DNA of 64,000 nucleotides from a virus (IMGVR_UViG_3300025921_000002:1-64000); one strand, 5' to 3'. Positions 36,935-56,142 are shown, counted from the first letter of the stretch. A program made the numbers and translations. The notes: generated by a model not told the origin, from the sequence alone.

Positions 36935-37013
36935 CCGACCGCAAGCGGATTTAAGAAACTTAAAGAGCCATTAAACGGGGGAGATGTCTTGCGGCGTTGA
37001 ACCCGGTTAATGG
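36935..37013 (+). ncRNA. HNH-leader pseudoknot RNA, copy 2
   Basis: CCG-ACCGCAAG-CGG ... GGGGGAGA-tgt-CTTGCGG-cg-TTGAACCC, downstream of TATATTTA (36922-36929). Confidence 0.7.
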
Positions 37014-37027
37014 TATTCTTTTTTAAA

Positions 37028-37468
37028 ATGAAACCGACTATATTTTCAGATGGTAGATTGTATGGGTTTACAAACGAACAAAGATTTAAAACTAAATTTG
37101 AAGTAAATGAAGAAACAGGATGTTGGGAGTGGAATGGTAGAATTAATAAAGGTGGCTACGGAAAGTTCACTTTTAATAACAAAGAATTAACGGCTCACAG
37201 AGTTTCATACATGCTACACAAAGGGGAAATACCTGATGGACTGCATGTATGCCATACCTGTGACGTAAGGCATTGCGTCAACCCAGATCATTTATGGTTG
37301 GGGACGAATGCTGATAATATGGCTGATAAAGTTAAAAAAGGGAGATTTGCAACAACCCATGGGACATACCAAATGTATTTTAGAAGAGGGTGTCGCTGTG
37401 AAATATGTGTAGATTGGTCAAGAAAAAGATATAGAAAAGGTGACCGGATTGACTCAAATAGAGAATAA
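37028..37468 (+). mobile_element. HNH homing endonuclease (probable start 37028)
   Basis: GCWEW.G....GYG.F......AHRVSY....G.IP.G..VCHTCD...CVNPDHL.LGT..DN..D. Confidence 0.93.
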
Positions 37469-39417: not shown

Positions 39418-40775
39418 TGGCAGAGATACAACCAAACTGGAACTCTTATTACAGCCCACAGGCTTACGATACCTTTAAAGGCAATCCCGGCCTCGACGAC
39501 CTTAATAAACGCTATGCCCAAATAGAAAAGGATAGGGAACTTGACAGACAGTTATTAGGTCAGCAAATCTCTAAAATGAACTTTGGTGGCGTTAAGCCTG
39601 CCGACGTGGGTGACCTGCAAAACCAGTACAACGATATTCTAAACGCCTATCAAAAGGCAAGGTCAATCACCGACCCTATGAAACGGGCGCAACTGACTAT
39701 GGAGTTGAGGCAGAAGATGAACGGTCTGCAATATAACGTGGAGAATAAAAAAGAGAACCACAGTCAGGAATTAAAGATGTTCGAGCAAATGAACCATCCT
39801 AATGCTTTCCCGGCTGACAACGCACAACAATTAGTAGGTGATGTGATAGGTACACCAACCGGAAGCCCCGAATATCAAACAAAATTAGAGGCTTTCAGAA
39901 ACGGTTGGCAGGATAAACCTGTTGACTTGGGAAAACTAACAACAACAGCCTTTACTAAAAACCTGACCAAAAGCACCAATTCAGGGCAAGAAATAAAAGA
40001 CCCCGCGACAGGACTTTTCAGGAATCAGATTATCAAAACCTCTGATGTTCCAAAAGCCGCTTACACCAACGAGATTGTAAACAGCGCATTAGGCGACAAA
40101 AGAACACTACATACCATAAGTAAGCTATACCCTGATTTGCCACCTGCACAAGCAGTTACACAATTTGCAAATGATAGTTATGAAGACCAAAAGCGTAAGT
40201 TGATAAGTGACACAACTTATAGCGCACCGCATATGAGTTATGACCAACATTTAGGCTTACAGGAAAATGCTGCAAGGCTTAAATCTAAATACCCATCGTT
40301 CGGTCAACAGCAAAACCTTACACCAATTTATAGGCAAAAATTAGTTGGTGATATGTTGAATGGTGTGCCGGGAAGTGGCGAAACTTTAGTCAATAAACTA
40401 AAAGCAGACCCATCCTATCAAAGACCTTTGGGTATTAAGGTAAATGGAGATAATATTCAATTTACAATACCCGATAAATTAAAAAATAAAATAGATAGTG
40501 ATGGAAAACCGTCGTGGCAGGTAGAAGTTCCTACACGGGTTGTTACAATTAATAAAAAAGACCCAAATGCAGATGTTCAGCTTAACGAATTAGTTAACCA
40601 ACTTACAGGCGAAAAAGTTGACATTTCCTCTTTAAGGACACAAGGCGGTAAAAAGCATGTTGCAGTTTCGGTTAGCAGTCAACCTGCAAAAGTAACCAGT
40701 CAAGACGAATACAATAAAGTACCTAAGGGCACTCAATACATAGCACCTGATGGTAAAATTTATATCAAAAAATAA
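39417..40775 (+). CDS. Internal virion/ejection protein (medium)
   Basis: Position; C-terminal EYNKVPKGTQYIAPDGKIYIK motif. Confidence 0.6.
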   Translation: MAEIQPNWNSYYSPQAYDTFKGNPGLDDLNKRYAQIEKDRELDRQLLGQQISKMNFGGVKPADVGDLQNQYNDILNAYQKARSITDPMKRAQLTMELRQKMNGLQYNVENKKENHSQELKMFEQMNHPNAFPADNAQQLVGDVIGTPTGSPEYQTKLEAFRNGWQDKPVDLGKLTTTAFTKNLTKSTNSGQEIKDPATGLFRNQIIKTSDVPKAAYTNEIVNSALGDKRTLHTISKLYPDLPPAQAVTQFANDSYEDQKRKLISDTTYSAPHMSYDQHLGLQENAARLKSKYPSFGQQQNLTPIYRQKLVGDMLNGVPGSGETLVNKLKADPSYQRPLGIKVNGDNIQFTIPDKLKNKIDSDGKPSWQVEVPTRVVTINKKDPNADVQLNELVNQLTGEKVDISSLRTQGGKKHVAVSVSSQPAKVTSQDEYNKVPKGTQYIAPDGKIYIKK

Positions 40776-43700
40776 TGGGACAATTTAGCTGGACTCCACC
40801 ATCAACTGATGAACCTGTAAAGAAAACAGGATGGACTCCACCTGCTTCTGATATTCCTGTCGTTGAAAAAAAAAGTCCAGTTGGCAACGCTTCTGTGGCT
40901 ACCTCAACGCAGTCTGGCGATGGCTCAAGTCCTTCCCCTCTCCAACAAAGTCTTACTAATGCTATGAAAGCGTATAGCATTACGCATACGCCAAAAGAAG
41001 TTAGTGATGTTCAAAACACAGTAAGCCAACAAAAACAAGAGGATAAAATAGCAAGAACCCCCGATGCTGTAGTTGCCCATGAGAAATACATGGAAACACC
41101 CTTAGGTAAAACACAGGGCGCTTTTCAATATGTTGGCTCTAAAGCCTCTAAAGGTGCTTTACAGATAGCTAAAGGCGCTACGTGGCTATATAATCATACT
41201 TCGGCCAATCCAATTCAGGGAATGATTGATGAAGTAAGTAATCAGCATAAAGGACAGGAAGATTTTTTCAACAAAGCAGATAAGGCAACTAACTTAGGTT
41301 TGACAGCTACCGACCTGCAAAACATTGAAAGCAATAAAGGTATAGGTGCTTCTGCCTTACGCACCGCAGGAACGTTCGCCGAGATAGCGCCAACAATATT
41401 AGGCGGCGAAGCATCTGGCGCACCAAAACTTGCCTTTGCATTACAGGGATTAGGACAGGGAAAAGAAACAATGGATGCAGTTGACCCCGACCATAAAGTT
41501 AACCCTGCAATAAGGGACGGCTTTATAGCCCTGAATGGCGCTTTTAATGCCGCTTTAATGGGTGACGCAGCAGAAACTAACTTTGCTAAAATGCCTGCCG
41601 CATTACGCGGTAAAATAAGTTCAGCTTTAGCTATGGACGCTATTAAGCAAAATGGCGAAAAAGAAATAACTGGTGAACTTGTTGACCATACCGTAAAAGA
41701 CTTTGCCCATAACTTTTATAAATTAGGCACAGACTATGTACAAAAGGTAGCCCGTACAGGCGTTGACCTTTCAGCATTGCAAGCAGCAACTGGCTTAGCT
41801 AAATATGGTGTAAATAAAGCAAGTGGGCAGGAGGTTTTTAAAAATCCCGCAGGAGAAACCGCAGAAGGGGTAAGCAACGCTGTTTTACAGCAAGCACCTG
41901 TTTTTGGTGCAGCAGGTACAGTAGGTGACCTTTCAAAGTTAACTCCTTATTCATCTTTTAAAAACGAGGTTTTTGAGAATATTGTTAAAGACCCAAGCCA
42001 AACAGATGCTATTAAACAGGAAATAGCACAACATGGTCAGGAAAGAGGATGGACACCGGAAGAAATTCAGGCCACTAACGACCATATTGACCAAATAAAA
42101 ACAGTAGCGCAAAGACTCCCTGAAACTATTAAACCTGAAAAAAAATCAGATGCAGTTCAATTAGTACTTGATCGGGATGCCCTAAAGAAACAACTGGCTA
42201 ATGAAGTTGGTAAAAGAGGCGCGATGGATGAGTCTGTTAAGGATTTGCCTAATGCTCACGAAGAATGGCTTACTGACAAGATTGAGCAAGCGAACGATAA
42301 GTTAAGGGCTATGGCTACGGGCAAGCGTACAACTTATTCTAAAGGCGTTGGCGACGAGGAAGGAAAGTTCTTCAAAACTACCAACGGCGAAAAGGAAGAA
42401 ATAACTGAAAATAGGTATAACTTAGAGAAGTTAGAACGCACAGCAAATGAAAATACTAATGAACAAGAAAAAATAAACAACAATGAAAAAATCAGCAACC
42501 AAAGCGAACAAGAAAGCGGTGTTCAGCAAACCGCCAGCGGGGAAAAAGTGGCAGAACAGCCCGGCAACCCCACCGAAAGCGTCCAAGCCATCGGCAACGG
42601 TAGTAGCGAAAATGAAGAAAGGCTGTTAACAACAGGGGGTGAACAGCCCCCTTTAAAAGCCATTAAAAACAAGGTTGATGAAAAAAATGCTCAAGACCCG
42701 GATTTTTCAGAAAAGAATTATGACGCATGGGAAGAGCACCGAATGGGTTTGGAAAAACAAATATTCCATGAGCCAATAGATGAAAATTTACCCATTAGTG
42801 AAAATATTAAACTTTTAAATAAATCATTAGAACCTGAATTTGAAAAAATAAAACAAGTTATAGGCGATGATGAAGTTGCTGATAAGTATATTTCAGCTAT
42901 CCAACGTAACCCAAAACGTGCTGAAAAAATAAGGAATGAATTACCAAAAGATGTTCAGGGTAAACTATTCAACCGAATAAATGAGGATGATTTTGAAGAT
43001 AATAAACAGCAAACTGACGAATTTGAACATCTTAATTCAGAAAGCGATAGGGATATAACAGACGAAATGAAATTTTCATGGATAGGGAAAAAAATAACCT
43101 CTCCATCCGACATGCAAAAGCCATTTAATCGAGTTATTGTGAAGGATTTAATTTCCCAATTGGCTGACAAGGGTTATTCGCAGGAAGAAATAGTCCGAAG
43201 GGCTATGCAAGACCGTGTTAGTCGGGGCGATAATGCCGAGCATGTAACTGAATTGGTTAAGGCTGTTTTGGAAGAACACGGTAAAAAATCTGAACCACAA
43301 CAAAAACAAATAGAAGGAGGTAAAAATGCCACTAAAACCGGGAACATCGAAGAAAACAATCAGCAGCAACATCAAGGAACTGTTGGACAGCAACAGGGGG
43401 TCGAAGAAAATCGGCAACACCAAGAAGAACCTGTCGCTAAAAGCCAAACAGAAACAGGCGGTAGCAATAGCATTGAGCAAGGCGGCCAAGTCAAAAAAAC
43501 AATCCTAACTAAACGAGCCTACGAAGGAGAGATACAGCTCGAAGTAAAAAAGCATCTTGAAGAAAAGGGGCTGACACGTAAGTCATTCTCACAAGAGGAA
43601 CGCTCTAAACAAGCTACCGACTTTATTAATAAGTTTGGTGAAGAAGCGGCACAAAAAGCAGTTGAAGCAGGAGATATAGACGGTGGTATGGCCGCATCTG

Positions 43701-45898
43701 TATTAGCACAACTAAAAATAAAAACCGATAAGGCAATGTCCGATTTCCCCGAAGGAAGTGAGGAACGCGATGCTTTGGCTAAAAAGCAAGCCGACATAAT
43801 AAACCTCATGGAAAAAAAGGGTTATTTAGGCGGTGAATTTAACGGGCAGTTAGCGCATGAATACCAAAACGCTGAATTAGACTTTGCCAATGTTAAAAGA
43901 CAAGTTGAGGACTTAACTAAAAAGCCACTTACCGCAGGTCAGGAAAAGAAGATCAAAGAAATTACTTCTGAAAACGAAAAGCTAAAAGCACAATTACAGG
44001 AAGCCGAAGCTAAGCTAATTGAAGAAACTGACAAGGCTTTTGAATCTGGCAAAGAAGCCGCTAAAACAGAAACCAACGCTGAAAAAGCAAAAAGAATAGC
44101 TCAAAAACTAAGAGATAATGCCAAGCTAAATAAACCGGGCATTTTTTCTGCGGCAACACCTGCATCTTTAATTTGGGACGGTGCTATTGAAGTAACAGCC
44201 AAAAGCATTGAAGCAGGCGGTAAACTGGCTGACGCTATTGAAGCAGGTATCAAACATATCAAAGCAAGCGATTGGTATAAAAACCTGCCTGCAAACAAGA
44301 AAGAACTTGCTGAAAAAGAGTTTAAACGTGTTAATTACGAACATTCAGGCAGTACCGATGTAGAGGACTTGCAGGAAAGGTTTGTTGACAAAACCGACAA
44401 TAAGTTCACCCCCAACGAGGCTAAAGACATTTGGGGCTACATGAAGAAAACCTATATTGAAAATGGCACTTCATATCGGGATGCCCTTTCAAAAACAGCC
44501 GAAGATTTAGGGCTTTCTTGGAGGCAAGTTAGCGAAGCCGTAACCACGCCAAAGGTCAAAAGAATGTCGGATGAAATGTGGAAACGTCAATCCGAATACA
44601 CCCGAAACAGAACCGCTATTAAGAATTGGATAGATACTCAAACAGCTAATCCTTTTATGAAAGCCCTTAGAAAGGTTTCAGGTGCTTTTAGGGGGTTGGC
44701 TGTATTTGGTCACGGTGGCATATTTGTTGGCACACACGCGGGTACGACAGTATTTAATCCGTCTATGTGGAATAAAACAATACCTGCTTTTTTTAGAGGT
44801 TGGAAGTTTGCCTACGGAAACGAGGGTAATTATCAGCGTTCAATGGAAGAATTAAAAAATTCTCCAAATTATCTTATTGCTCAAAGAGCGGGTTTGAAAA
44901 ATAATCCTGAAAGAATAAATACAGAGGAATATCAAAAATCTCAACAATATTTAGGCAGAGCAGGATTAGCCGGAGAAAGAGGATTTAATGCCATAAAAGT
45001 GCTTCGGCAGGACTTATTTGACTATCATTTCAATAAACTGTCACCTGCGGAAAGAGATGACCCGGAAGTAGCTAAGAGCATAGCTAAATTAGTTAATTTG
45101 GCTACAGGAGCGACTAACTTAAAAATACCATCATGGGTACAAGAAGTTTCATTTGCCGGGGGTATGGAGGGTTCAAGATGGGAAAAGTGGCTAAGAAGCC
45201 CCGCAGAGGCCGCAGATATTGCCATGAAAGCCATATTCACGCCTGACAAAGCAACTACCGAGGAGCGTATTTTTGCAAAAGTATGGGCAAGACGGGTTGG
45301 TGAGCAATTGGCCACATTCAGTGCGCTACTTTTAGCTAATTCTGCTATTCAAAATACTTTAAATCCTAAAAATCCTGTAAATTATACAAACCCCGATAAG
45401 CCGGACTTTATGAAATTTAAGTTTGGAGATAGGACTATTGACCCAACATCGGGCATGTTAGGTGTAGGAAAGTTTATATATAAAGTAGGTAAATTACCAT
45501 TCCAAAGCGAAAAAGAATTACATGGTGATAAAAAGATTGCCGCTTTAGGTAAGGATTTGCTTCAATACGGTAGAGGAAAACTTGCTCCATTTTATGGCAC
45601 GGTAGCCGATGTATTTACAGGAAGGGATTTTAACGGAAACCCGCTACCATATAGTAAGGAAAAACCGGGTAAAGGGCATCATAAATTAGGTTATGGAGAG
45701 TACGCTTTAAGTAAAGCCCCGTTGCCGGGAGCGGAAGCTGCAAATGTTACTTATAAATCAGCCGAAGAACATGGAGCGCATGTCCCTACATTGGATGATG
45801 TGATAAAAGGATTCTGGTCAGGGGCTATTTCAGGGGCAACAGGATTTAGGGTTGGCGAATACGATGCCAACTCCCCTGAAAATAAAAAGAAAAAATAA
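40775..45898 (+). CDS. Large internal virion/ejection protein (1707 aa)
   Basis: Size, Ala/Gly-rich then helical composition, position after the smaller ejection genes. Confidence 0.7.
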   Translation: MGQFSWTPPSTDEPVKKTGWTPPASDIPVVEKKSPVGNASVATSTQSGDGSSPSPLQQSLTNAMKAYSITHTPKEVSDVQNTVSQQKQEDKIARTPDAVVAHEKYMETPLGKTQGAFQYVGSKASKGALQIAKGATWLYNHTSANPIQGMIDEVSNQHKGQEDFFNKADKATNLGLTATDLQNIESNKGIGASALRTAGTFAEIAPTILGGEASGAPKLAFALQGLGQGKETMDAVDPDHKVNPAIRDGFIALNGAFNAALMGDAAETNFAKMPAALRGKISSALAMDAIKQNGEKEITGELVDHTVKDFAHNFYKLGTDYVQKVARTGVDLSALQAATGLAKYGVNKASGQEVFKNPAGETAEGVSNAVLQQAPVFGAAGTVGDLSKLTPYSSFKNEVFENIVKDPSQTDAIKQEIAQHGQERGWTPEEIQATNDHIDQIKTVAQRLPETIKPEKKSDAVQLVLDRDALKKQLANEVGKRGAMDESVKDLPNAHEEWLTDKIEQANDKLRAMATGKRTTYSKGVGDEEGKFFKTTNGEKEEITENRYNLEKLERTANENTNEQEKINNNEKISNQSEQESGVQQTASGEKVAEQPGNPTESVQAIGNGSSENEERLLTTGGEQPPLKAIKNKVDEKNAQDPDFSEKNYDAWEEHRMGLEKQIFHEPIDENLPISENIKLLNKSLEPEFEKIKQVIGDDEVADKYISAIQRNPKRAEKIRNELPKDVQGKLFNRINEDDFEDNKQQTDEFEHLNSESDRDITDEMKFSWIGKKITSPSDMQKPFNRVIVKDLISQLADKGYSQEEIVRRAMQDRVSRGDNAEHVTELVKAVLEEHGKKSEPQQKQIEGGKNATKTGNIEENNQQQHQGTVGQQQGVEENRQHQEEPVAKSQTETGGSNSIEQGGQVKKTILTKRAYEGEIQLEVKKHLEEKGLTRKSFSQEERSKQATDFINKFGEEAAQKAVEAGDIDGGMAASVLAQLKIKTDKAMSDFPEGSEERDALAKKQADIINLMEKKGYLGGEFNGQLAHEYQNAELDFANVKRQVEDLTKKPLTAGQEKKIKEITSENEKLKAQLQEAEAKLIEETDKAFESGKEAAKTETNAEKAKRIAQKLRDNAKLNKPGIFSAATPASLIWDGAIEVTAKSIEAGGKLADAIEAGIKHIKASDWYKNLPANKKELAEKEFKRVNYEHSGSTDVEDLQERFVDKTDNKFTPNEAKDIWGYMKKTYIENGTSYRDALSKTAEDLGLSWRQVSEAVTTPKVKRMSDEMWKRQSEYTRNRTAIKNWIDTQTANPFMKALRKVSGAFRGLAVFGHGGIFVGTHAGTTVFNPSMWNKTIPAFFRGWKFAYGNEGNYQRSMEELKNSPNYLIAQRAGLKNNPERINTEEYQKSQQYLGRAGLAGERGFNAIKVLRQDLFDYHFNKLSPAERDDPEVAKSIAKLVNLATGATNLKIPSWVQEVSFAGGMEGSRWEKWLRSPAEAADIAMKAIFTPDKATTEERIFAKVWARRVGEQLATFSALLLANSAIQNTLNPKNPVNYTNPDKPDFMKFKFGDRTIDPTSGMLGVGKFIYKVGKLPFQSEKELHGDKKIAALGKDLLQYGRGKLAPFYGTVADVFTGRDFNGNPLPYSKEKPGKGHHKLGYGEYALSKAPLPGAEAANVTYKSAEEHGAHVPTLDDVIKGFWSGAISGATGFRVGEYDANSPENKKKK
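42483..42629 (+). CDS. Nested +1-frame 48-aa Lys-rich protein
   Basis: MKKSATKANKKAVFSKPPAGKKWQNSPATPPKASKPSATVVAKMKKGC, preceded by the A-rich leader aataaacaaca. Confidence 0.5.
   Translation: MKKSATKANKKAVFSKPPAGKKWQNSPATPPKASKPSATVVAKMKKGC
43326..43508 (+). CDS. Nested +1-frame 60-aa Lys-rich protein (MPLK.G.S.KTIS.NI.E...QKQAVAIALS.A family)
   Basis: Recognisable small phage protein pattern; GAAGGAGG-TAAAA-ATG upstream. Confidence 0.75.
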   Translation: MPLKPGTSKKTISSNIKELLDSNRGSKKIGNTKKNLSLKAKQKQAVAIALSKAAKSKKQS

Positions 45899-46417
45899 TT
45901 AACACTTTCTATTTTTTCTATATTCAGCATTTCTCGCTAATACCATTTCTCTATTATTTTGGTAATATTCAGCTTGTTTTCGCTTATTACTTTCGGCATT
46001 ATTTAATCGCCACTGTTTTTGATATTCCCTTTCTAATTCTACGCAGCCGTCGCACCTGCATCCATTTCTAAACATGCTTCTTGATGGACATTGCGCCGTT
46101 GGCAATCTTCCTTTGTTCTGTGCATCATTTATATTTTCTTTATTTGTGCCTATCCACAAATGAAATGGGCTAACGCATTTTCTATTATCACATCTATGGC
46201 AAACAAACATTCCTTCTGGAATTTCTCCAATATAAAATTGATAAGAAAATCTATGTGCAAGTATTCTTTCTTGTTTTATCTTAAAATTACCATAGCCGCT
46301 TACATTTAATGGAGATTGCCATTCCCAGCATTGCGTTTCTGGATTTATAAGATATTTTTTTGTAAATCTTTCTATTGGGGATACCGCTAAATAATCCTTT
46401 CTCCCAAGTCCAGCCAT
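45899..46417 (-). mobile_element. HNH homing endonuclease (probable start 46417)
   Basis: CWEW......GYG.F......AHRFSY....GEIP.G..VCHRCDN..CV.P.HL..GT..EN..D, plus a C-terminal GCRCDGC shared with the 37028 HNH. Confidence 0.93.
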
Positions 46418-46426
46418 AGTAATAAA

Positions 46427-46510
46427 AAGTCCTGTTCCGGGTTCAAGCGATTGCGCCACTCTCCCCCAAAACAGGACTCTAAATATCTTTATTCGGAGCG
46501 CAATTCCGAT
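46427..46510 (-). ncRNA. HNH-leader pseudoknot RNA, copy 3
   Basis: CGGA-ATTGCGC-TCCG ... GGGGGAGA-gtg-GCGCAAT-cgc-TTGAACCC, downstream of TACCTTCG (46526-46519). Confidence 0.7.
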
Positions 46511-46581
46511 TACTTATACGAAGGTAAGAAAAAACTTTTTTATATTATTCTTTTTGTTATTTTTACTAAAAAATAAATATC

Positions 46582-47915
46582 ATGGCTATCATAATCACAT
46601 CGCCTGTTACTGGAAGTTTAAGGATTCAGTCAACCGCAGCATCTCCGCAGGTAAGTTATCTGACTAATATAGCTACTTGTATTGTTTCGGGTGATTACAG
46701 TTCTAATTCTGTTTTAATAACAGATACAGACAACAGGTTACTCGAACAGTTCCCGGTATCAAGCATTACCCGTATATCAGCATCAACACAAGGATTCGAT
46801 TTAACTTTCGCTGTTGACGCAATTGCAAGCCTTATAATGAAGTAGCCATGAGCGTAGTAACATCAGCATTAATAACCCAGTCCCCAAGTGGAAGCGTAGT
46901 TACCTTTACAGATAACACAACCGGATTGGTTGGTACGATTACCCGAACGCTTGCCGTTTATGATGATAATGGCAACCTTTTAGCTAATCCTGTTTTTAGC
47001 GGGAATGTGGCGACCTATGATATTACCTCTGATATTTTTATGGCGTTTGTAGAAAACATAACCGATGATAACGGCTCTTATACACAGACCCTGCATTATC
47101 AATCTACGGCATTTTTTGAAAACTCTTTTTCTAATGCCATTGCAGGGGTAACTTCGCCATATGGAAATGATAGTGGCACTATATATAATTTGAACTTAGC
47201 GATGGACTATTATATGGCTTGTTTGCGCTTCTTTATTGGTGGATTTGGCGTTTCGGCTCAAAACATGATAACCCAAGCGAATTTTTACGTGTCGACTCCT
47301 TTCTACAGTTTATAAATTATGCCGAGCCAACAAGAGATACAAGACGTAATATTATCAGCACAGTATAAAGAGGCTATACTGGTACAGAAAAACTATGACC
47401 TTGTTAATTCAGGCAACCCACAACAAAACTACCCTTTAATTAACTATTTAAGACTCAATATAACGGGGCTTTCCTTTCAGCTAAATAGACCTGATTACAC
47501 AAGTTCAACAACGTTAACTATTTACGACAGGCTTCAAAACATCATAGGATTTGACACTACTATCAACTCACTTGACCCTGACGCACAGATACCGGGAACA
47601 GTAATAGAGATAGTTAACCCTGCGGGATATACCGCACCAATAGACTTTGGATGGGCTGATTTTAGTACAGATGGAAGCCCAGACGGAGGCCAAACTCGTG
47701 TGCAATACCTTAACGCTAATTGGGCAGGCTTAAACCCATTTATGGAACTAATAAGCCCGGCAGGAACAGCTTTGGTATTAGGGTTAGATTACTCAATTTT
47801 AAGTGCCGGGGGCATAATGATTTTAGATACTTCAATAGTCCTACCCGGAATCGGAAGTGGTGCGGGAATTGTAGATGGTCAGACTTTACGGGCTTATAGT
47901 TACGCTTTAGCTTAA
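46582..47915 (+). other. Three putative tail hub/fibre-attachment genes (46582-46845, 46848-47315, 47319-47915)
   Basis: Ser/Thr/Gly-rich, charge-poor virion-like composition; upstream of the fibre-like genes. Confidence 0.55.
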
Positions 47916-47920
47916 ACAAT

Positions 47921-50900
47921 ATGAGAAAATGGTTACTGCTTTTTCTGCTTTTACCTTTAAAAATATTTGCCGCAACATGGTTCGTCAGTCCGACCGGGAA
48001 TGATGGCAATAGTGGCACAAGTTCCGGCTCGCCATTCCTCACGCTCGCAAGAGTTCAAACGGCCTACCATGCAGGCGATATTATAGAATTACAATGCAAT
48101 GGGACTTATATAGGTACTTTAACCATAAGCGCGGCATCACAAGTAATTAAATATGGGTCGGGGACTCAACCATTAATAAGTGGCTTTGAAACATTAAGTG
48201 GATGGGCAAGCGTTGGGACTAACCTTTGGCGTGTACACGACGCTAATTTAGGCGCTACTGTTAAGGTTTTCACTATAAACGGCACTCAATACGCACCGGG
48301 ACGTTTTCCTAAAGTCGGTTATTCAATTTACACGGCCTCAACTGCCAACACTTCAATAACAGCCGCAGGATTAGCCGGGACATGGGGAGCAAACGCACAG
48401 GTAGTTATTCGTAAGAACCATTTTAACATGACTACCTATCCTATCGTTTCGGTAGTTGGAAACGTAATAACTTATAGTGGTGGCAGTGGCGATGTCCCAA
48501 CACCGGGTTCAGGCGCTTTCATTCAAAATAGCTTAAATGCTTTAAGTCAAAACGGGGACTGGTATTATGATGGCGCAGGTAATATAACCCTTTATTGGGT
48601 AGGAACACCACCAGTAAACATTCAAGCGTCAAGATACGACAGGTTAATAAATATAACAAGCGGAAGCGGCGCTATTGTAAATGGGATTAACCTGACAGGT
48701 GCAAATGCCTATGCTATTTACGGCAACAACACTACATCGGCTCAAATAGTCAATTGTACCATTACTCAAAGTGACATTGGTGTTTATCTGAATAACAACA
48801 CCTCATCAATTATAAATGGCTGTATTTTCAACCAAATTAATGGAAATTCCATCACTTTAGCTACCTCAAACTCTAATACTATTAACAATACGACGGTAAC
48901 TACTTCAGGCATGATACCGGGGATTGCTACGGAATATTCGGGTATAAGAGTAATACCAAACACAGCAAGAAACACAATCATCACCAATAGCACAGTAAGT
49001 AACACGGGTTACAATGGATATTTTGTTCAAGGGCAAGTAACCATGCAAAATGATATAGGTCACGACTGCCTGAATTTACTTGATGATGGCGCGATTTATT
49101 ATTTTGACGTCGGCCAAACGGCTGTTACAATCCCCGCTTCTGTGGTTAGTAATTGCATAGGGTACAATGCAAATGGCGCACCCGTAGGAACAAACGATGG
49201 CAAGAATGAAGCAGTTGTCTTTTACGCAGACGATAACACCAATCACTTTACGTTCTCACATTGCGTAGGTTATAATGCGGGGCAGTACATTTTTTTCAGC
49301 CATAACAATCAAAATGTGACGTGGAGTAATTGCTTAGGATATAACGCAGGCATTTCCACAATGGCTATGATACACGACAGATTAGGTGGTAAGCTATCCA
49401 ACATTACTTTAGCAAACAACCAATTTATAAACACCATAGGGCAAATCCTGATACTGCGCTCAATTTGGACAGACTCAACTCCGGCAGACTTAACCAATTG
49501 GGGCGTTGCAACGAATAATGCGTACGGCAACAACGTAACCGTAGCCAACCCCTTTCAAACCCAACTATACAGCCAACCCGTACAAAACTTAACGTTCGCA
49601 GGTTGGAAAACAGCCACAGGGCAAGACGGTTCAAGTTCGTACCAAACTATTCCAAGCCCCTCGGCTTTGTACCCTAATCCCACAAGCACAAGTACCACTA
49701 CTACTCTTTCAGCAGTTTATAAAGACCTATTAGGTAACTCTTATAGTGGGGTGACAAGTATAGCCGCGTATAGTGCTTTGTATTTGTACTATTTTGGGGC
49801 TATCCCGCCCGTTGCACCTTCAATTTCGTATAGCCCAAATAATTATACGTTTTACGTTAATGACCCCATACCAAGCCCTATTACCCCGGTTAACGTTGGC
49901 GGAGCAATGACAAGTGCAGCGATTAACACTCCACAACCATCGGGCATTTTATTTAACACCACAACCGCAGTTTTTACAGGAACGCCACTTGCTTTAAGCC
50001 CCTCACATACTTATACCGTGAACGGAATTAACGCCGGAGGTTCAAGTTCAACACCAATCACGTTTGCTATTATCGACCACCCTCCAGTAGTATCTTACAA
50101 TAATAGCCCCCAAACAGCTACTATTAACGTTGCTATGACTCCGATGAGTCCTACACTTGTGAGTGGTGGGGCGGTTACAAATTATACTTCGGCTACGGCA
50201 CTTCCGGCAGGCGTTACTATAAATTCAGTTTCCGGTGTTATCAGTGGGGTGCCTACGGTTTTGATACCCCTGACCACATTCAATATAAATTGCTCGAACT
50301 CGGGGGGTGTGTATGTAGTTCCCATTCAACTCGGTGTTACCAATCCTGCCCCCGCTTTGCCTCACGTGACTTATAGTCCATCCACTGTTGTATTGCCTAT
50401 TAATATTTCAATGGTACCATTAGTGCCAACATCGACTGGTGGCGTAGTGGCAAGCTATTCAGCCGCTTCATTACCTGTGGGCGTTTCGCTGAATACAAGT
50501 ACCGGAGTTGTCAGCGGTACCCCTACTACTTTAACTTCGCCAACCGTATACCCAATCATTGCCCATAATGTAACAGGTGATTATACAACTAACATAACTT
50601 TGTCGGTAATCAACACGACCCCCAACCCTCCTGTGCCATCATATAACCCAGCTACGGTAGTTTTTCAGTTAGGACATATAATTACACCAATGGTTCCTTT
50701 CAATAGTTCTGACCCCGCTACAAGTTGGTCTATTGCGCCTGCTGTGAGTGCCGGATTATCCTTTAGTTTAACTACAGGAATTTTAACAGGAACCCCAAGT
50801 GCTTTATCACCTGTTACTTCTTATACGGTTCGGGCAGATAACACAGGCGGCCACAATAATACGACCATCACTTTATCAGTAGTCAATCCACCTCCTACGC

Positions 50901-50953
50901 CAGTTATACGTGTACGCACCTCGAAGCATCCAATATTTATCAATAGGCATTAA
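47921..50953 (+). CDS. Sec-signal protein with a right-handed beta-helix (pectate-lyase-like) and about four putative Ig repeats; depolymerase/adhesin-like
   Basis: MRKWLLLFLLLPLKIFA|ATWFVSPTGNDGNSGTS.GSPF.T; DDGAIY; repeated LP.G.S.N..TG..SGTPT. Confidence 0.85.
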   Translation: MRKWLLLFLLLPLKIFAATWFVSPTGNDGNSGTSSGSPFLTLARVQTAYHAGDIIELQCNGTYIGTLTISAASQVIKYGSGTQPLISGFETLSGWASVGTNLWRVHDANLGATVKVFTINGTQYAPGRFPKVGYSIYTASTANTSITAAGLAGTWGANAQVVIRKNHFNMTTYPIVSVVGNVITYSGGSGDVPTPGSGAFIQNSLNALSQNGDWYYDGAGNITLYWVGTPPVNIQASRYDRLINITSGSGAIVNGINLTGANAYAIYGNNTTSAQIVNCTITQSDIGVYLNNNTSSIINGCIFNQINGNSITLATSNSNTINNTTVTTSGMIPGIATEYSGIRVIPNTARNTIITNSTVSNTGYNGYFVQGQVTMQNDIGHDCLNLLDDGAIYYFDVGQTAVTIPASVVSNCIGYNANGAPVGTNDGKNEAVVFYADDNTNHFTFSHCVGYNAGQYIFFSHNNQNVTWSNCLGYNAGISTMAMIHDRLGGKLSNITLANNQFINTIGQILILRSIWTDSTPADLTNWGVATNNAYGNNVTVANPFQTQLYSQPVQNLTFAGWKTATGQDGSSSYQTIPSPSALYPNPTSTSTTTTLSAVYKDLLGNSYSGVTSIAAYSALYLYYFGAIPPVAPSISYSPNNYTFYVNDPIPSPITPVNVGGAMTSAAINTPQPSGILFNTTTAVFTGTPLALSPSHTYTVNGINAGGSSSTPITFAIIDHPPVVSYNNSPQTATINVAMTPMSPTLVSGGAVTNYTSATALPAGVTINSVSGVISGVPTVLIPLTTFNINCSNSGGVYVVPIQLGVTNPAPALPHVTYSPSTVVLPINISMVPLVPTSTGGVVASYSAASLPVGVSLNTSTGVVSGTPTTLTSPTVYPIIAHNVTGDYTTNITLSVINTTPNPPVPSYNPATVVFQLGHIITPMVPFNSSDPATSWSIAPAVSAGLSFSLTTGILTGTPSALSPVTSYTVRADNTGGHNNTTITLSVVNPPPTPVIRVRTSKHPIFINRH

Positions 50954-51108
50954 TAATTAAAAAGTCATACCCATTTTACTAATCTCACGCTATCAGGACA
51001 CTTGCTTTCGATTTTCTTGCACTTAGTACAGATATACAAAGGTCTATTCCCTGCTGTTTTAATCCAAGAATGACCTAATAATTTACAAGTCCAGTTCTTC
51101 ATGGTGGT

Positions 51109-51354
51109 TTATTTTGTTACTACTTTTACCATAGCCCCGCCTGCATCAATGGTTTCGGCTAATTTGTTGTCTTTATATAGCAGGTAGGTATTGCCGTTTT
51201 TTACGTATTTATCGCAGTAGTGGATGTAGCCTATGATGCCCATATAAAACGTCAACTCATATTTTCTATCCTTATTATTAATAACTTTTGACTGATTGCA
51301 GGAGTTTAAACATAGTGCAAAATAATAATAACTGCGACTGCACACGTTGCCCAT
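51109..51354 (-). CDS. Small possibly lipoprotein-like protein
   Basis: LNS-C motif near the N-terminus; start uncertain. Confidence 0.35.
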   Translation of the reverse strand: MGNVCSRSYYYFALCLNSCNQSKVINNKDRKYELTFYMGIIGYIHYCDKYVKNGNTYLLYKDNKLAETIDAGGAMVKVVTK

Positions 51355-51437
51355 AATTGCCAAACTTTTGTAAACGGGCAACCGACCATTAGCAAATAAC
51401 CTTCTTCTTCTATCATTTTGTTTCTACTGATTTAACT

Positions 51438-51767
51438 TTAAATGATTCCATTTCGTCTAACAATTCCGCATAGTTTGTTAACTTCATCGTTTTGGTTAAC
51501 CGAATGAGATTTATCAAATTCAGATTCATACAAACCGGGAATATCATAGGTGACGAATTTATTCAAATCCATTTTTAGCCACGAACATATTTTAAATAAG
51601 GTATCAACCTCGAATGTTTTTTTGGACAGTACCCGCGATAATGTAGGGGTTGATATGCCGATTTCCTTAGAGAAAAACCTAAGCCCTAATTTCTTATTAT
51701 TAGCGTAGTTAGCTAAAAACATCTTATCATTAATGGACTTAATGAAAAACCACTGATTAAATTTCAT
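51438..51767 (-). CDS. XRE HTH regulator
   Basis: LGLRFFSKEIGISTPTLSRV......VDTLFKICSWL; TATCTTTG 3 nt before the ATG. Confidence 0.8.
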   Translation of the reverse strand: MKFNQWFFIKSINDKMFLANYANNKKLGLRFFSKEIGISTPTLSRVLSKKTFEVDTLFKICSWLKMDLNKFVTYDIPGLYESEFDKSHSVNQNDEVNKLCGIVRRNGII

Positions 51768-51847
51768 AATCAAAGATACAGTTATCCAATATCAATTGCA
51801 ACTTTTTTATTAAATAAATATTTTTAACTTTACGCAACAATTCAGCT

Positions 51848-54800
51848 ATGCGTAAATACTTATTACTGCTTCTGTTCCTTTTCCCCCTAATCTGTTTTGC
51901 GCAAGCAATCACACAGCAGGTAAAATCTCCAGCATCAGGTAGTTCAGCGGGTAATTCCTTTTTCCAATGGTACTCCGGCAACTACACTGGCTATCTTGGT
52001 GTTCCTTTCGGTACTAATGCAGTAACCAACAGGGCAACTGACATGAACGGTCTGATATATGTTCAGCTTGCCGACAGTACATTGCAATTCCGCTACAATG
52101 GCACATGGATACCCATTGGAAGCGGTGGAGGTGCTACAAGTGCTATCTACTTTTCGACCCAATTTGCGGGGTTAGGCACAATAGTTTCGCCCATCATTCC
52201 GAATGCAGACTCAATATTATTAGCGAACCAAATTACCAAACAGAATGTTTATAGTTATTTCAGAAAAGTAAGAACAGATACCGCCTTTTTTGGTCAGACA
52301 AGCCCCTCCTTAATCACAGGTGGACTACAGGCCGGAGTACTATCCTTACCCACCGCTACAAGCGGAACTAAAGGCGGATTAGGTGTACAGCTACTCGCTC
52401 AACCCACAGGCAACACCTCAATAGGCTACAACTCTATTATTTCAAGCGTTGAAACAGACACTTTAGAGGGCAGAAACTTTACCAACTATATGAATGCGTT
52501 CACTGGCGCAGTCAAGCACAGAGGTACAGGAATAGTAACTAACGCGAGTGATTTTGTAGCCCAAAGCCCCTACATTTCAAGCGGCGGAACAATAGCTAAC
52601 CAGTCAGGTATCGTTATACAGCCTCAAAAAATAACAGGGGTAACTAACGGGTATAGTATTTTACAATTAGGTACAACCGATAAGAACATCTTTAACGGGC
52701 CGATACACGCCTTTAACGTCCCCGTAGATTCATCCCCTGACACAGTTTTAACCCTTGTAAACGGTAAGATTTCAAGAGCAGCTTATATAGGTGGTACAAG
52801 CGGTAATGCTATCATTTCAGGGCTTGCCATGAGCTTATTCATCAATGGAAGCGGGGATACCTCTATAGTTGTCAGCCCCGGAACATGGCGAATTAACAAC
52901 ACCATCTATTCTAAAGCTACTTCATCTTTTTTCCCTATTTTACCAAGACCGATAGCAGGTGAGTTCTTTTACGAAACAGCCTACGCCACTACTTCTAATA
53001 CGATTTCTATCATAGCCGGAACATCAAGCCCCACACCAATAGAACCTGCTATACCTGCTAATACCGTTAGGGTAGGTTCGGCTTTAGTGAGCAATACGGG
53101 GATAGTGATAACTCCGACTACGCAAAGTACAATATACAACAATAACGACAGTTTAACAAGCAATAGAACGGTTTTTTTTAGCAATCATTATTTACAAATG
53201 GGCGATACGCTAAATAATAAAGCTCTATTTATAATCCAACCTATTGGAAATTCAATAGCTATGCTGGATTATAATTTAACCTCCGCAGAAAATGGACAAA
53301 TTGGTATTAGTCAAAATGCATCATCTATTGTTTATCAAGACACTTTGGGCAATAATAGCCAAGCAATAACTACAACGTCATTCTCATCGATAGCGTCTCA
53401 ATCTCTGGGGCAGGAATTTTCACTTTCATTAAATGGCGGCGTATCGGTTTCCCATGATGCTATCTTTGCTGATAGCTATAATTTTAGAGGCATTGAATAT
53501 GACCATGCCACCCACTACACTCCTAACGACTATACCCTGTTAAGCAAATACATGGCTGATAGCCTTTATTCAGGTGGTGTTAACATTTACAATTCAGACG
53601 GTACGTTAACCGGGGCAAGAACAGTTTCCGGTGGTGGTAATACCCTTCAATTTAGTTTACCAATAGAAGATTTTTCAGGAACAGAAACTTCAAGTCTAAA
53701 TCTTAATGGCACATCCACAAGCTTAATAGCCAGTTATGGTACAGGGGACACTTATAATTTATCCTCAACTATATCGGGAACAAATACCTCATTAGTTATA
53801 AATAGGATAAATTCAGCAAATGTAACTGGCTTTGAAATAAATAACACAGGTACAGGGATTATTGTTAAAGACGAGATAGGGGCTATAGGCCTTGTAGCTA
53901 ACACTTCGATTGATACCGCCAATATGACATCCAATCCTAAAGCATACGTTACGAGTGAGTGGGTGGCGGGACGTAGTGTGGGTGCTTTCCTTCCCCTAAC
54001 TTTCCCAACAGATCAGCACATAGACGGGGCACATCATTCACTGGTTTTTGAAACATTTACATCCGATAACGTAAATGAAGGAGTTTTAGCCATTGATTCA
54101 AGTGGATTTTATTTAGGGGCTTATACCTCCGGTAATCAGGTCATTAGAACAGGCCATTATACCGCTACAGGGAGCGGTTTAGATGTTGTTAATGATTTAG
54201 GCACCGGATTTAAATATAGCAATGCCGCTGACTATGCGACTATAGGTACGACTGATACATTAGGCATGGCCCCTGTTGGATGGGTTCAGCGATACGTGGC
54301 AGCGCATGCAGGAACTGGAACTGTAACCTCTGTATCCGGAACAACCAATAGAATAACCTCTACAGGCGGAGCAACCCCTGTAATTGATATATCTTCAACA
54401 TTTGAGGCTCTTTTAGGTAAGGTTGCAAATCCCTTATCTCAATTCGCCTCAACCACATCTGCTCAATTGGCGGGGGTGTTGAGTGATGAAAGCGGAACCG
54501 GGGTAGTGGCTTATACCACCAATCCGGTATTTACAACACCGAATTTAGGGACGCCATCGGCTGTTACTTTAACTAATGGGATGGGGCTGCCTGCTACCGG
54601 GCTGACAGGGACGCTTCAAGTTGCTCAATTCCCGGCGCTAACCGGAGATGTTACAACGTCAGCTGGCTCGCTGGCAACAGCTATCGGCGCAGGGAAAGTA
54701 ACCAACACGATGCTTGCCGGGAGTATATCCGCTTCAAAATTGGTTGGGACGGATATAACAACGGTCGGCACATTAGCGGCTGGTTCGATACCCTATTCGC

Positions 54801-55651
54801 TATTGACCGGAACGCCAACAATACCTACCGGAGCCAATCCAACAGCAAGCGCAGGTTTATCGGCGGTAAATGGTTTAGCGGCTACATTTATGCGCAGCGA
54901 TGGGGCGCCCGCTATAGATCAAAGCATATCCCCCACATGGACAGGGTTTCATACATGGAGTAAATCCAATATCGGAACGGGAGTTGGAACAGCCTTAGCT
55001 AACGTACTCGGGCTATGGAAAAATCCGACAGCCGCATTGGTCGGAGCAGTTCAAAATTCGCCTTTTAGCGGGTGGGAGGCCCAAGATTGGAATACATCTG
55101 CCGGAGGTTCATCGCAGGCGGTCGATATTTTGGTGCGCGCAGAAGCTGTGCAGGGAACAAACGCAAGTGCCGATCTGGCATTCTATTTAGCCGTTAATGG
55201 TGGTAATCCCGCTGCTACTGGCGTTAAGATTGGTGGAACGGGGAGAATCACTGCTCCTGCCTATACGATCAGTAACGCACCATCAACATCTGCATCTACG
55301 TATGATATTTTAACACGCAATACCTCTACTGGAGTGCAAGAGAAAATAACGTCAGCCACACTTTTACCCGCAGCTTCGGTTTCATCCGCCGGAACTCTAA
55401 CGCTGGCTCATGGCATTGATTATGTATTTACAGGCACCACAGCAACCTATACATTGCCTGCCATATCGGCAACAACCACTGGCAGGGCATACCAGATAAC
55501 AATAAAAAACAGAGGCAGTGGTTTGTTGACGGTTAACTCGGCAGCGGGTGGTAATGATATTTATACGACATCAGCCGTATCTACTTTTACTATATCAGCA
55601 GGTAGTTCTGCTACGCTAATGCCGGATGGCACATATTTTAACCTTGAGTGA
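51848..55651 (+). CDS. Mosaic tail-fibre-like protein with a Sec signal peptide
   Basis: MRKYLLLLLFLFPLICFA|Q; fibre shaft motifs NIYNSDGTLTGARTV, GTGTVTSVSGTTNRITSTGG, SDE.GTG...F.TP.LGTPS and LTGDVT; C-terminal T.TLPA..GR.Y..IKN.G.G.LTV. Confidence 0.8.
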   Translation: MRKYLLLLLFLFPLICFAQAITQQVKSPASGSSAGNSFFQWYSGNYTGYLGVPFGTNAVTNRATDMNGLIYVQLADSTLQFRYNGTWIPIGSGGGATSAIYFSTQFAGLGTIVSPIIPNADSILLANQITKQNVYSYFRKVRTDTAFFGQTSPSLITGGLQAGVLSLPTATSGTKGGLGVQLLAQPTGNTSIGYNSIISSVETDTLEGRNFTNYMNAFTGAVKHRGTGIVTNASDFVAQSPYISSGGTIANQSGIVIQPQKITGVTNGYSILQLGTTDKNIFNGPIHAFNVPVDSSPDTVLTLVNGKISRAAYIGGTSGNAIISGLAMSLFINGSGDTSIVVSPGTWRINNTIYSKATSSFFPILPRPIAGEFFYETAYATTSNTISIIAGTSSPTPIEPAIPANTVRVGSALVSNTGIVITPTTQSTIYNNNDSLTSNRTVFFSNHYLQMGDTLNNKALFIIQPIGNSIAMLDYNLTSAENGQIGISQNASSIVYQDTLGNNSQAITTTSFSSIASQSLGQEFSLSLNGGVSVSHDAIFADSYNFRGIEYDHATHYTPNDYTLLSKYMADSLYSGGVNIYNSDGTLTGARTVSGGGNTLQFSLPIEDFSGTETSSLNLNGTSTSLIASYGTGDTYNLSSTISGTNTSLVINRINSANVTGFEINNTGTGIIVKDEIGAIGLVANTSIDTANMTSNPKAYVTSEWVAGRSVGAFLPLTFPTDQHIDGAHHSLVFETFTSDNVNEGVLAIDSSGFYLGAYTSGNQVIRTGHYTATGSGLDVVNDLGTGFKYSNAADYATIGTTDTLGMAPVGWVQRYVAAHAGTGTVTSVSGTTNRITSTGGATPVIDISSTFEALLGKVANPLSQFASTTSAQLAGVLSDESGTGVVAYTTNPVFTTPNLGTPSAVTLTNGMGLPATGLTGTLQVAQFPALTGDVTTSAGSLATAIGAGKVTNTMLAGSISASKLVGTDITTVGTLAAGSIPYSLLTGTPTIPTGANPTASAGLSAVNGLAATFMRSDGAPAIDQSISPTWTGFHTWSKSNIGTGVGTALANVLGLWKNPTAALVGAVQNSPFSGWEAQDWNTSAGGSSQAVDILVRAEAVQGTNASADLAFYLAVNGGNPAATGVKIGGTGRITAPAYTISNAPSTSASTYDILTRNTSTGVQEKITSATLLPAASVSSAGTLTLAHGIDYVFTGTTATYTLPAISATTTGRAYQITIKNRGSGLLTVNSAAGGNDIYTTSAVSTFTISAGSSATLMPDGTYFNLE

Positions 55652-55692
55652 GACACGCCTTTTCAAAATTATAGTTATTATATTTACAAGAC

Positions 55693-56142
55693 ATGCAACC
55701 GACCGAACAGGAACTTAAAACAGTCAGGATAACCGCAAGATTATTTTTCTCGGTTAGCGTTATATTTGCTGTCTGCCTTGCATTTGTTTTCGCCAAGTCA
55801 GCAGAATATAATCCAGCCGTAAAATACTTTACGTCGGCGGGGGCTATCAACCAGCCTGTACGGGTTTGGGATGGCATTATAACAGTCACAACTGGCACGG
55901 CGCAATCGGTTGATATATCAAGTGCCGGATTTACCTCTATCAATTCTGTAGTTGTTACACCAGCTAATAACACAGCATCAACAACATCGATGCCAATAGT
56001 TTCAATAAAATCGTACACGGCTACCTCGGTCGTTTTTAATACTTTGGTTAGCAACACTGCCGGAATCGGTATTTTGGTAGGGCTTATTGTCCCATCATCA
56101 ACCACTGGAATGCAGGTTCATGTGCACGTAGACGGATGGTAA
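55693..56142 (+). CDS. Signal/anchor helix plus a small beta-rich fibre-tip-like domain
   Basis: Hydrophobic residues ~17-34, then a Ser/Thr-rich domain ending VHVDGW. Confidence 0.6.
   Translation: MQPTEQELKTVRITARLFFSVSVIFAVCLAFVFAKSAEYNPAVKYFTSAGAINQPVRVWDGIITVTTGTAQSVDISSAGFTSINSVVVTPANNTASTTSMPIVSIKSYTATSVVFNTLVSNTAGIGILVGLIVPSSTTGMQVHVHVDGW

Follow-up and report, generated by a model that had tools for sequence, protein, structure and literature searches.

Sec-type leaders on the fibre-like proteins of a putative Bacteroidota podovirus point to maturation outside the cytoplasm

In the textbook account, tailed phages are put together entirely in the cytoplasm, and classical tailspikes and fibres, which lack a signal peptide, also fold and attach there. 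Why, then, do the two largest proteins of a phage fibre locus begin with what read as ordinary Sec leaders, and where would such proteins meet the virion, if they meet it at all? The locus lies in IMGVR_UViG_3300025921_000002:1-64000, a 64,000-nucleotide stretch (the window) at the very start of a virus record of 74,996 bp, which CheckV rates complete. Its two genes encode P0001, a beta-helix/immunoglobulin-like (Ig) protein of 1010 amino acids (aa), and P0002, a modular fibre-like protein of 1267 aa. Comparison of these sequences with their relatives indicates that both are fibre- or spike-like host-recognition proteins that very probably mature outside the cytoplasm. The parts of the two proteins, and the gene that follows them, are as follows.

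47921-50953, plus strand: P0001, comprising a leader, a right-handed beta-helix (~18-620), four He_PIG Ig domains and a conserved short C-terminal tail
47921-47971, plus strand: P0001 signal peptide, 17 codons, functionally matched by the leaders of its relative P0010 and of the 433-aa proteins in related loci
51848-55651, plus strand: P0002, leader-bearing modular fibre-like protein, assessed by HMMER family searches, tblastn and glycosylation-sequon counts
51848-51901, plus strand: P0002 signal peptide, 18 codons, with Gln at +1; M1, P13 and Q19 invariant in 18 family members
51902-52123, plus strand: conserved N-domain of mature P0002, residues 19 to ~92, with an invariant D76 in the family alignment
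54422-54967, plus strand: tail-fibre-type repeat region of P0002, residues 859-1040, matching leaderless phage proteins
55693-56142, plus strand: P0003, 149 aa, with a hydrophobic helix at about residues 17-35 (a signal-anchor or a leader with a long n-region) and a beta-rich body

The open reading frames (ORFs) of the 1010-aa and 1267-aa genes lie where the original prediction placed them, and its reading of both N-termini as Sec signal peptides is borne out. With the arrow marking predicted cleavage, P0001 begins MRKWLLLFLLLPLKIFA↓ATWFVSPTGNDGNSG (IFA↓ATW) and P0002 begins MRKYLLLLLFLFPLICFA↓QAITQQ (CFA↓QA). Substrates of Sec and signal peptidase I are recognised by a positive n-region, an h-region of 7-15 residues, a helix breaker near -6 and small residues at -3 and -1; P0001 divides accordingly into MRK / WLLLFLLLPL / KIFA↓A and P0002 into MRK / YLLLLLFLF / PLICFA↓Q. 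In both, the n-region is positively charged and the core rich in Leu, position -6 is Pro, and the residues at -3 and -1 are small. The leaders had been described as near-identical, which holds for their kind but not for their DNA, as only 26 of 51 positions are identical and codon choice differs; a recent duplication of the leader is thus ruled out, and the resemblance is that of two generic Bacteroidota leaders. Translation from a start downstream of the signal, which the original prediction had named as the finding that would count against it, is implausible because the next Met lies at about residue 331 in P0001 and at residue 66, within the conserved N-domain, in P0002. Moreover, the beta-helix-type N-terminal motif of P0001 follows immediately after the leader, as it does in cellular homologues.

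The leaders also bear on the destination of the mature proteins. Pfam and NCBIfam searches of P0001, P0002 and their relatives P0004 and P0010 found no C-terminal sorting domain of the type IX secretion system (T9SS; PF18962 / TIGR04183 or type B), which rules out T9SS secretion, even though cellular homologues of P0001 do carry PF18962. Lipoprotein anchoring through signal peptidase II is likewise ruled out, since P0001 has Ala and P0002 has Gln at +1 and neither shows a lipobox; the single Cys of P0002 sits at -3. Because both the T9SS domain and the lipobox are missing, the default destination is the periplasm. The Gln that P0002 exposes at +1, already recognised in the original prediction and known as the Q-rule, is shared by the 433-aa proteins of related loci (SEA↓QT), but P0001 and P0010 have Ala and Thr, respectively, at this position.

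Conservation of the P0002 leader was assessed through an exhaustive HMMER search with residues 1-850, which recovered a module consisting of the leader and ~90 further residues in at least 18 representatives at ≤50% identity. Proteins of this family range from 167 to 1615 aa and their distal bodies are otherwise different, while M1, P13 (-6) and Q19 (+1) are invariant across the 18-sequence alignment and the invariant Asp76 of the N-domain falls in a DST sequon. More widely, leaders are kept in function rather than in sequence, in P0010, in P0004 and in at least 49 further relatives. A crude leader rule selects 49 of 148 relatives of the P0002 internal domains, a number that rises to 51 once P0038 and P0058 are read by eye, and in most of these the predicted cleavage site is Ala, Gly or Ser followed by Gln. 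The remaining 97 of 148 are leaderless, and in our own reading many of their N-termini resemble those of ordinary phage fibres. Further along the protein, P0002 residues 859-937 are 51% identical to a gene product annotated 'tail fiber protein' (MW202697; tblastn), and P0005 is 65% identical over residues 859-921. The shared leader module, the domains held in common with leaderless fibres and the repeat matches together mark P0002, as judged by comparison, as a fibre-type mosaic in which selection acts on a leader that is part of the proximal module. No tail-fibre family in PHROG or Pfam matches P0002, and NCBIfam and PDB sequence searches returned nothing; the AlphaFold model of the N-domain is poor, with a predicted local distance difference test (pLDDT) score of 66, and an Atlas hint that the P0002 N-terminus resembles a 'phage tail like trimerisation region' (score 0.87) serves as a lead only.

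The N-domain looks confined to free phage contigs. A pattern search found it neither in IMG/VR nor in 185,579 species genomes, and its profile gave five marginal matches, none of them solid, in 401 Bacteroidota genomes; a reading of the family as a prophage 'moron' was rejected, as it has no solid match in the bacterial genomes searched. Two of the marginal matches are near-full-length and lie on cellular Bacteroidota leader-bearing proteins, L100 (G114:C1) and L101 (G146:C11), with open frames of 1439 aa and 525 aa and a common motif G.L.P…N…G..Y.Q.SD…Y…W.P. These proteins may be cellular cousins of the phage module.

If P0002 and its relatives leave the cytoplasm, they might bear the marks of the compartment they enter. 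A general O-glycosylation system of Bacteroidota modifies the motif D-(S/T)-(A/I/L/V/M/T) (PMC8550257), and its substrates are located outside the cytoplasm (PMC12871550). Measured against shuffled sequences, P0002 carries 11 such sequons, all within residues 76-803, where 5.0 are expected, a count reached in 11 of 1000 shuffles. Other proteins of the phage are not enriched: P0001 has 1 (2.7-2.8 expected), the portal 2 (1.9 expected), a 1295-aa tail protein 4 (5.0 expected) and a 1707-aa cargo protein 0 (3.6 expected). Among the relatives, the 51 leader-bearing proteins hold 321 sequons against 148 expected (2.2x; z ~15, although kinship among the representatives means that z-values overstate independence), and with the first 130 aa removed they still hold 252 against 132, with 35 of the 51 above expectation. 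The 97 leaderless relatives, by contrast, are slightly depleted (163 against 205), and of four control motifs none exceeds expectation in either set, the counts being level or lower. Since the leaderless relatives have the same domains yet no excess, the contrast points to export, without which it would be hard to explain. The excess is uneven, as the 1485-aa fibre of locus L009 has 13 sequons against 4.7 expected and the 1920-aa fibre of L018 only 5 against 5.5. In exposing Gln after a signal peptidase I leader and in their excess of D-S/T motifs, P0002 and its leader-bearing relatives resemble the known Q-rule and O-glycosylation substrates (PMC5837995, PMC10653852, PMC8550257, PMC12871550), which differ in being cellular envelope or secreted proteins; P0001, with Ala at +1 and no sequon excess, does not share these features. 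By this comparison, P0002 is probably O-glycosylated by the periplasmic system of its host.

One might suppose instead that the hydrophobic N-termini are never used for export, either because Sec is blocked late in infection or because the helix is an assembly or trimerisation element, and that these proteins remain cytoplasmic and undergo ordinary fibre assembly. All known tailed-phage fibres do assemble in the cytoplasm. Yet what is kept in these N-termini, a Gln at +1 that never varies together with Pro at -6 and small side chains at -3/-1, is characteristic of signal-peptidase substrates rather than of assembly elements, the leader sequences vary while a generic Bacteroidota pattern is kept, and the sequon excess is limited to leader-bearing relatives. 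We regard an unused leader as very unlikely. Because of the invariant Gln at +1, agreement with the -3/-1 rule and a sequon excess found only in leader-bearing relatives, Sec export with cleavage before the Gln would best account for P0002, and for the two proteins together we consider export through Sec followed by cleavage highly probable.

The phage itself has the hallmarks of a short-tailed virus. PHROG profiles assign a large terminase (21893-23971), a portal (24030-26465) and several structural proteins of the virion. With the portals of short-tailed Flavobacteriia phages, namely the Pachyviridae (phi19:3, phi18:3 and relatives, here Cellulophaga phages), the Maribacter phage Panino and the 'elemo' phages of Flavobacterium, this portal shares 22-27% identity. 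With these phages the genome is collinear as far as a giant 1707-aa internal or cargo protein. Window DNA is present in rhizosphere and soil metagenomes, and no signs of lysogeny appear in the genome parts examined. The best explanation is a lytic Bacteroidota podovirus in which P0001 and P0002 are late, virion-module proteins. The genes that frame them are listed below.

33016-36903, plus strand: signal-less central tail protein, 1295 aa, without a leader, with PHROG minor tail/tail protein matches
40775-45898, plus strand: internal/cargo-like giant, 1707 aa, at the end of the core virion module and corresponding to the giant upstream of the cassette in relatives
46582-46845, plus strand: signal-less cassette neighbour, 87 aa, with a 51% identical homologue in the same place in L006, L008, L014 and L018
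46848-47315, plus strand: signal-less neighbour, 155 aa, with homologues 32-55% identical in the same place in all longer related loci
47319-47915, plus strand: signal-less neighbour, 198 aa, with homologues and an alignment revealing a conserved N-half and a variable C-terminal beta domain
51109-51773, minus strand: insertion between the leader genes, holding a helix-turn-helix (HTH) gene and a 90-codon ORF, found in the window only; the leader genes abut in relatives

A metagenome scan with the N-domain found 13 related loci, all from bog lakes, and every longer one shares the gene order of the window: a homologue of the 1707-aa cargo protein (60% identity over 868 aa to the giant protein of L006, L014 and L018), then genes of 90, 156 and 194 aa, a 433-aa leader protein and a leader-bearing fibre, after which there is sometimes a third leader-bearing protein and then small membrane proteins. 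The three small genes are 32-55% identical to the 87-, 155- and 198-aa genes of the window. The 433-aa proteins have the leader MYRLKWIILVLILLPFYSEA↓QT, a beta-helix and one He_PIG domain, and the N-domain fibres are 609-1920 aa long, some with an SGNH/GDSL esterase domain. SGNH esterase and beta-helix domains are typical of phage receptor-binding proteins. The combination expected of a receptor-binding protein, a position in the virion module with conserved proximal and exchangeable distal parts, is thus found here. In this the proteins of the two leader slots resemble classical spikes, such as the beta-helix gp9 of P22 and the SGNH-esterase spikes, which likewise combine enzyme with Ig or fibre modules, are conserved proximally and variable distally, and are encoded at the distal end of the virion module.

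P0001 is the more ambiguous of the two. Pfam places He_PIG Ig domains in four stretches (E 3.9e-15), while the Beta_helix family PF13229 scores 23.3 bits against a gathering cut-off of 25.9; the same family is carried by P0010 and by 20 of 21 further P0001 homologues among the matches listed. P0010, the closest relative (52% identity over 98% of P0001), comes from a 69-kb contig and has a different leader, MRIKLLTLLLCLPFIANSA↓TWY. Every other homologue is a cellular protein, from soil Bacteroidota or from other bacteria; these proteins have leaders, many of them ending in a T9SS C-terminal domain as well. Neither tblastn against cultured phages nor the IMG/VR scan yielded a relative. In the reading that we favour, P0001 would be an exported glycan-binding or glycan-cleaving partner. 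After the last Ig domain, P0001 and the 433-aa proteins have in common a C-terminal tail, VIRV[RP] followed by ~8 residues (…I), at 50894-50950 in the window, 9900-9945 in L018 and 9304-9349 in L011, on bodies of 1010 and 433 aa; this tail may be a docking peptide.

The immediate upstream neighbour of P0001 offers a candidate for the virion side. The stop codon of the 198-aa gene lies 5 nt before the P0001 start, and its family joins a conserved N-terminal half to at least three unrelated C-terminal halves. In the model, the N-half forms a three-helix bundle (pLDDT 71), and an Atlas hint likens the protein to the T7 fibre N-terminal domain (score 0.87), a lead that PDB does not support. We propose the 198-aa protein as a candidate virion-side adaptor. 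The 87-, 155- and 198-aa proteins have no matches in PHROG, Pfam, NCBIfam or PDB, apart from a marginal PHROG match of the 155-aa protein to a family of unknown function (E 0.009). Downstream, the signal or anchor helix that the original prediction attributed to the next gene is present in P0003, which has no family matches in PHROG, Pfam, NCBIfam or PDB sequence searches and whose slot in related loci is held by a different small leader-bearing gene (L018 15706-16086). P0003 is possibly a periplasm-facing partner or chaperone.

How could exported proteins become part of a particle built in the cytoplasm? We favour, at slightly below an even chance, a scheme in which the fibres complete their maturation in the periplasm and attach to cytoplasm-built particles once the lysis cassette opens the inner membrane. 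P0001 and P0002 would be translated with Sec type I signal peptides, cross the inner membrane and be cut by host signal peptidase I, whereupon Gln19 of P0002 would be exposed and converted to pyroglutamate by the host glutaminyl cyclase and the protein would probably be O-glycosylated at D-S/T-hydrophobic motifs by the general periplasmic system of the host. P0002 would serve as an exchangeable distal fibre that docks through its conserved N-terminal domain and can swap its distal modules. Folded and modified, both proteins would be held in the periplasm and would reach the fibre-less cytoplasmic particles only once the inner membrane is broken by the holin-type lysis cassette next to their genes; the signal-less 87-, 155- and 198-aa proteins or the 1295-aa central tail protein may be the docking targets. 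The leaders and their conservation, the synteny, the sequon excess and the presence in RNA libraries come from comparison, and from them we infer actual cleavage, glycosylation, periplasmic folding and, above all, docking after lysis. Virion joining is favoured because of the position in the virion module, with a 5-nt upstream gap, the conserved-proximal and variable-distal build, the receptor-binding-type domains, the fact that the 75 kb hold no further fibre-like gene and the proteins of cultured Cellulophaga phages annotated from tandem mass spectrometry (MS/MS); domains common to leaderless phage fibres lend it indirect support. The original prediction saw no long signal-less fibre gene, a statement that requires amendment, since the signal-less 1295-aa tail protein is the only other large tail protein besides P0001 and P0002; it is not fibre-like, however, and no further fibre-like gene was found across the 75-kb genome.

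The cultured relatives supply the closest precedent. In the Pachyviridae phage phi18:3, gp085, gp086 and gp087 are each recorded as 'structural protein', a status that rests on the GenBank record annotation, whose notes give the basis as 'experimental MS/MS proteomics', and their N-termini read MKNKITIIMILMSISFGYS↓QV, MKKTIYILSILLLTISGVSA↓QT and MKHTFSIVLFFILSIGLNA↓QT. In phi19:3, gp087-089 and gp094 have a leader followed by Gln and are structural by similarity, while gp090 has a leader without Gln at +1 and is annotated hypothetical; gp120, a 'structural protein' in the same record, is homologous to the 1295-aa tail protein. Like P0001 and P0002, the Pachyviridae leader proteins are consecutive, large and adjoin small membrane proteins, in their case together with a lysin gene. 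The lineage is distantly related to this phage (24% portal identity), and its leader proteins differ in being shorter (303-785 aa), in having no sequon excess and in lying upstream of the terminase rather than after the cargo gene. The putative fibres of the Maribacter phage Panino have no leaders, and because the Cellulophaga proteins do, both solutions exist in the wider clade. The papers searched contain no remark on the leaders of the Cellulophaga structural proteins, and nowhere in the literature searched are tail fibres with leaders, or tailed-phage parts that mature in the periplasm, described; the target proteins of phage diversity-generating retroelements are said to be without signal peptides (PMC6199706).

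A different outcome of export is that P0001 and P0002 never become virion parts and act late in infection on the envelope of the infected cell. They could be periplasmic enzymes that destroy receptors or trim glycans, or binders that strip or mask nascent surface polysaccharide, which would keep progeny from being caught on debris and shut out superinfection; alternatively, they could be helpers of envelope breakdown beside the lysis cassette. Phages are known to export proteins that form no part of the tail fibres, as T5 does with Llp and lambda with Lom and Bor; like Sec-dependent endolysins, these have Sec leaders and act on the host envelope, and some are encoded in or beside tail-fibre regions. 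Genuine leaders that lead to the periplasm by default, in the absence of a T9SS domain or lipobox, agree with such a role, as do SGNH esterase domains in relatives, the location of the genes just ahead of the small membrane proteins in a lysis-type cassette, and the promoter-like box and adjoining HTH gene of P0002. It suits P0001 best, whose beta-helix family consists mostly of cellular secreted Bacteroidota proteins, enzymes among them, and which has no docking domain, no Gln at +1 and no sequon excess. Q-rule proteins are also found in Porphyromonas gingivalis phages, where their function is unknown and the authors suggest possible modification of the host outer membrane (PMC10367356). The build of P0002 and its family speaks against the envelope role: sizes of up to 1920 aa, a conserved N-module with swapped distal modules and repeats of leaderless fibres are a signature of host-range proteins rather than of lysis or exclusion factors. 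Llp-, Lom- and Bor-type proteins are small, single-domain and neither modular nor fibre-like, most of them from prophages or early infection. With an envelope role the genome would be left without a fibre-like receptor binder, save for the 1295-aa tail protein, and in cultured relatives MS/MS is the stated basis for annotating leader-bearing proteins as structural. We consider an envelope role a serious alternative, though less probable than docking on virions.

A further fate is display on, or release from, the infected cell as adhesins, with the N-domain binding a component of the host envelope, as modelled by the mosaic fibre proteins of Bdellovibrio and by PblA/PblB of a Streptococcus mitis phage. 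The MAT fibres of Bdellovibrio bacteriovorus have a signal peptide, a beta-rich N-domain of ~100-130 aa, phage-fibre-like shafts and exchangeable tips, and these exported fibres recognise the surfaces of other cells (PMC10769870). The build of P0002, on which alone the comparison is drawn, matches theirs in its signal peptide, conserved N-domain and variable tips, and the two weak near-full-length profile matches on cellular leader-bearing proteins (G114, G146) fit the same idea. MAT fibres, however, are cellular gene products shown on the predator's own surface, whereas P0002 is encoded in a phage virion module, and many MAT fibres end in an S74 chaperone-protease domain (PF13884), which Pfam did not find in P0002. 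Adhesins would also need a route through the outer membrane, for which there is neither a T9SS C-terminal domain nor a lipoprotein signal. The family is restricted to phage-like contigs, with nothing solid in the 401 Bacteroidota genomes or, by pattern, in the 185,579 species genomes, and with no lysogeny sign in the parts examined, display would last only minutes to hours. Adhesin display is accordingly unlikely in our estimation. Of the proposal made in the original prediction, export is upheld by the comparative evidence, but the two fates that it named, joining the virion and display on the host, are not separated.

Several observations tell against docking on virions after lysis. We know of no comparable assembly route for tailed phages. 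P0001 lacks the Gln at +1 and the sequon excess, its closest non-phage relatives are cellular secreted enzymes and, unlike classical spikes, it has no recognisable N-terminal domain for docking to the particle, its beta-helix beginning directly after the leader. The sequon excess of the fibres is uneven, as the L018 protein illustrates. The model of the candidate adaptor has no fold match in PDB and no tail-fibre-attachment fold, and the 1295-aa tail protein could be the primary receptor binder. The Cellulophaga leader proteins have no detectable sequence similarity to P0001 or P0002, and exported proteins can co-purify with virions. Finally, P0002 seems to have its own promoter beside the HTH gene.

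Extended to the whole particle, periplasmic maturation with docking at lysis would amount to two-compartment assembly, with heads and tails made in the cytoplasm and Sec-exported, trimmed, pyroglutamylated and O-glycosylated fibres added at lysis, giving a virion with host-made glycans on its receptor-binding organ; this fuller picture we hold more tentatively. If the host-range organ of a widespread group of Bacteroidota phages does fold and acquire its modifications in the periplasm, phage assembly would gain a new step, docking at lysis or later, and infectivity would be tied to host Sec, signal peptidase, glutaminyl cyclase and O-glycosylation, which would become new routes of resistance and handles for host-range engineering. 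Host-type glycans on virions would be relevant to recognition by other bacteria, grazers and animal immune systems, and annotation pipelines that count a signal peptide against a virion role would mislabel such genes. New here are the N-domain family and its unvarying Gln, the synteny of two leader-bearing slots, the difference between relatives with and without a leader, and the RNA-library coverage; with the Cellulophaga phages in culture, the question can be tested directly.

Expression was considered from sequence motifs and RNA libraries. The insertion between the leader genes, whose XRE/Cro-type HTH gene (51438-51773, minus strand) matches Pfam HTH_26 (E 1e-4), leaves P0002 with a promoter-like box of its own:

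51825-51832, plus strand: TAACTTTA, similar to the -7 box of Bacteroidota promoters and 15 nt ahead of the P0002 start (putative)

Three rhizosphere RNA libraries contain contigs that are ≥99% identical to the region and cover both leader-coding 5' ends, which places the leader-coding parts in RNA libraries but neither proves transcription nor fixes the start codons. One contig crosses the P0001 start (47899-48163). Two others (51853-52207 and 51862-52097) start 5 and 14 nt past the first base of the P0002 start codon, and a DNA contig reads through the position where these RNA contigs, from two runs, begin, a weak hint of a P0002-specific transcript start downstream of the TAACTTTA box. No RNA contig covers the HNH gene region at 45800-46581, although RNA coverage is low and uncovered stretches are not evidence of silence.

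HNH_3 homing-endonuclease genes lie within the virion module at 37010-37468 and 45899-46459 on opposite strands, with homologues at shifting places in related loci (for example, L009 3531-4040 and L014 14232-14726). Related phages also carry a 432-aa gene upstream of the cassette (L018 5150-6448) that is interrupted by an intein in some genomes, as at L011 4049-6382, where the LAGLIDADG-domain intein gives a 777-aa product; the window has no homologue of the 432-aa gene. Elsewhere in the genome, a small lipoprotein-like exported protein (…LMSIFSC) is encoded at 18823-19095, and beyond the window, at 73571-73852 on the minus strand, lies a small exported protein with a Q-rule leader, MKYLTFILLAFALNASA↓QE.

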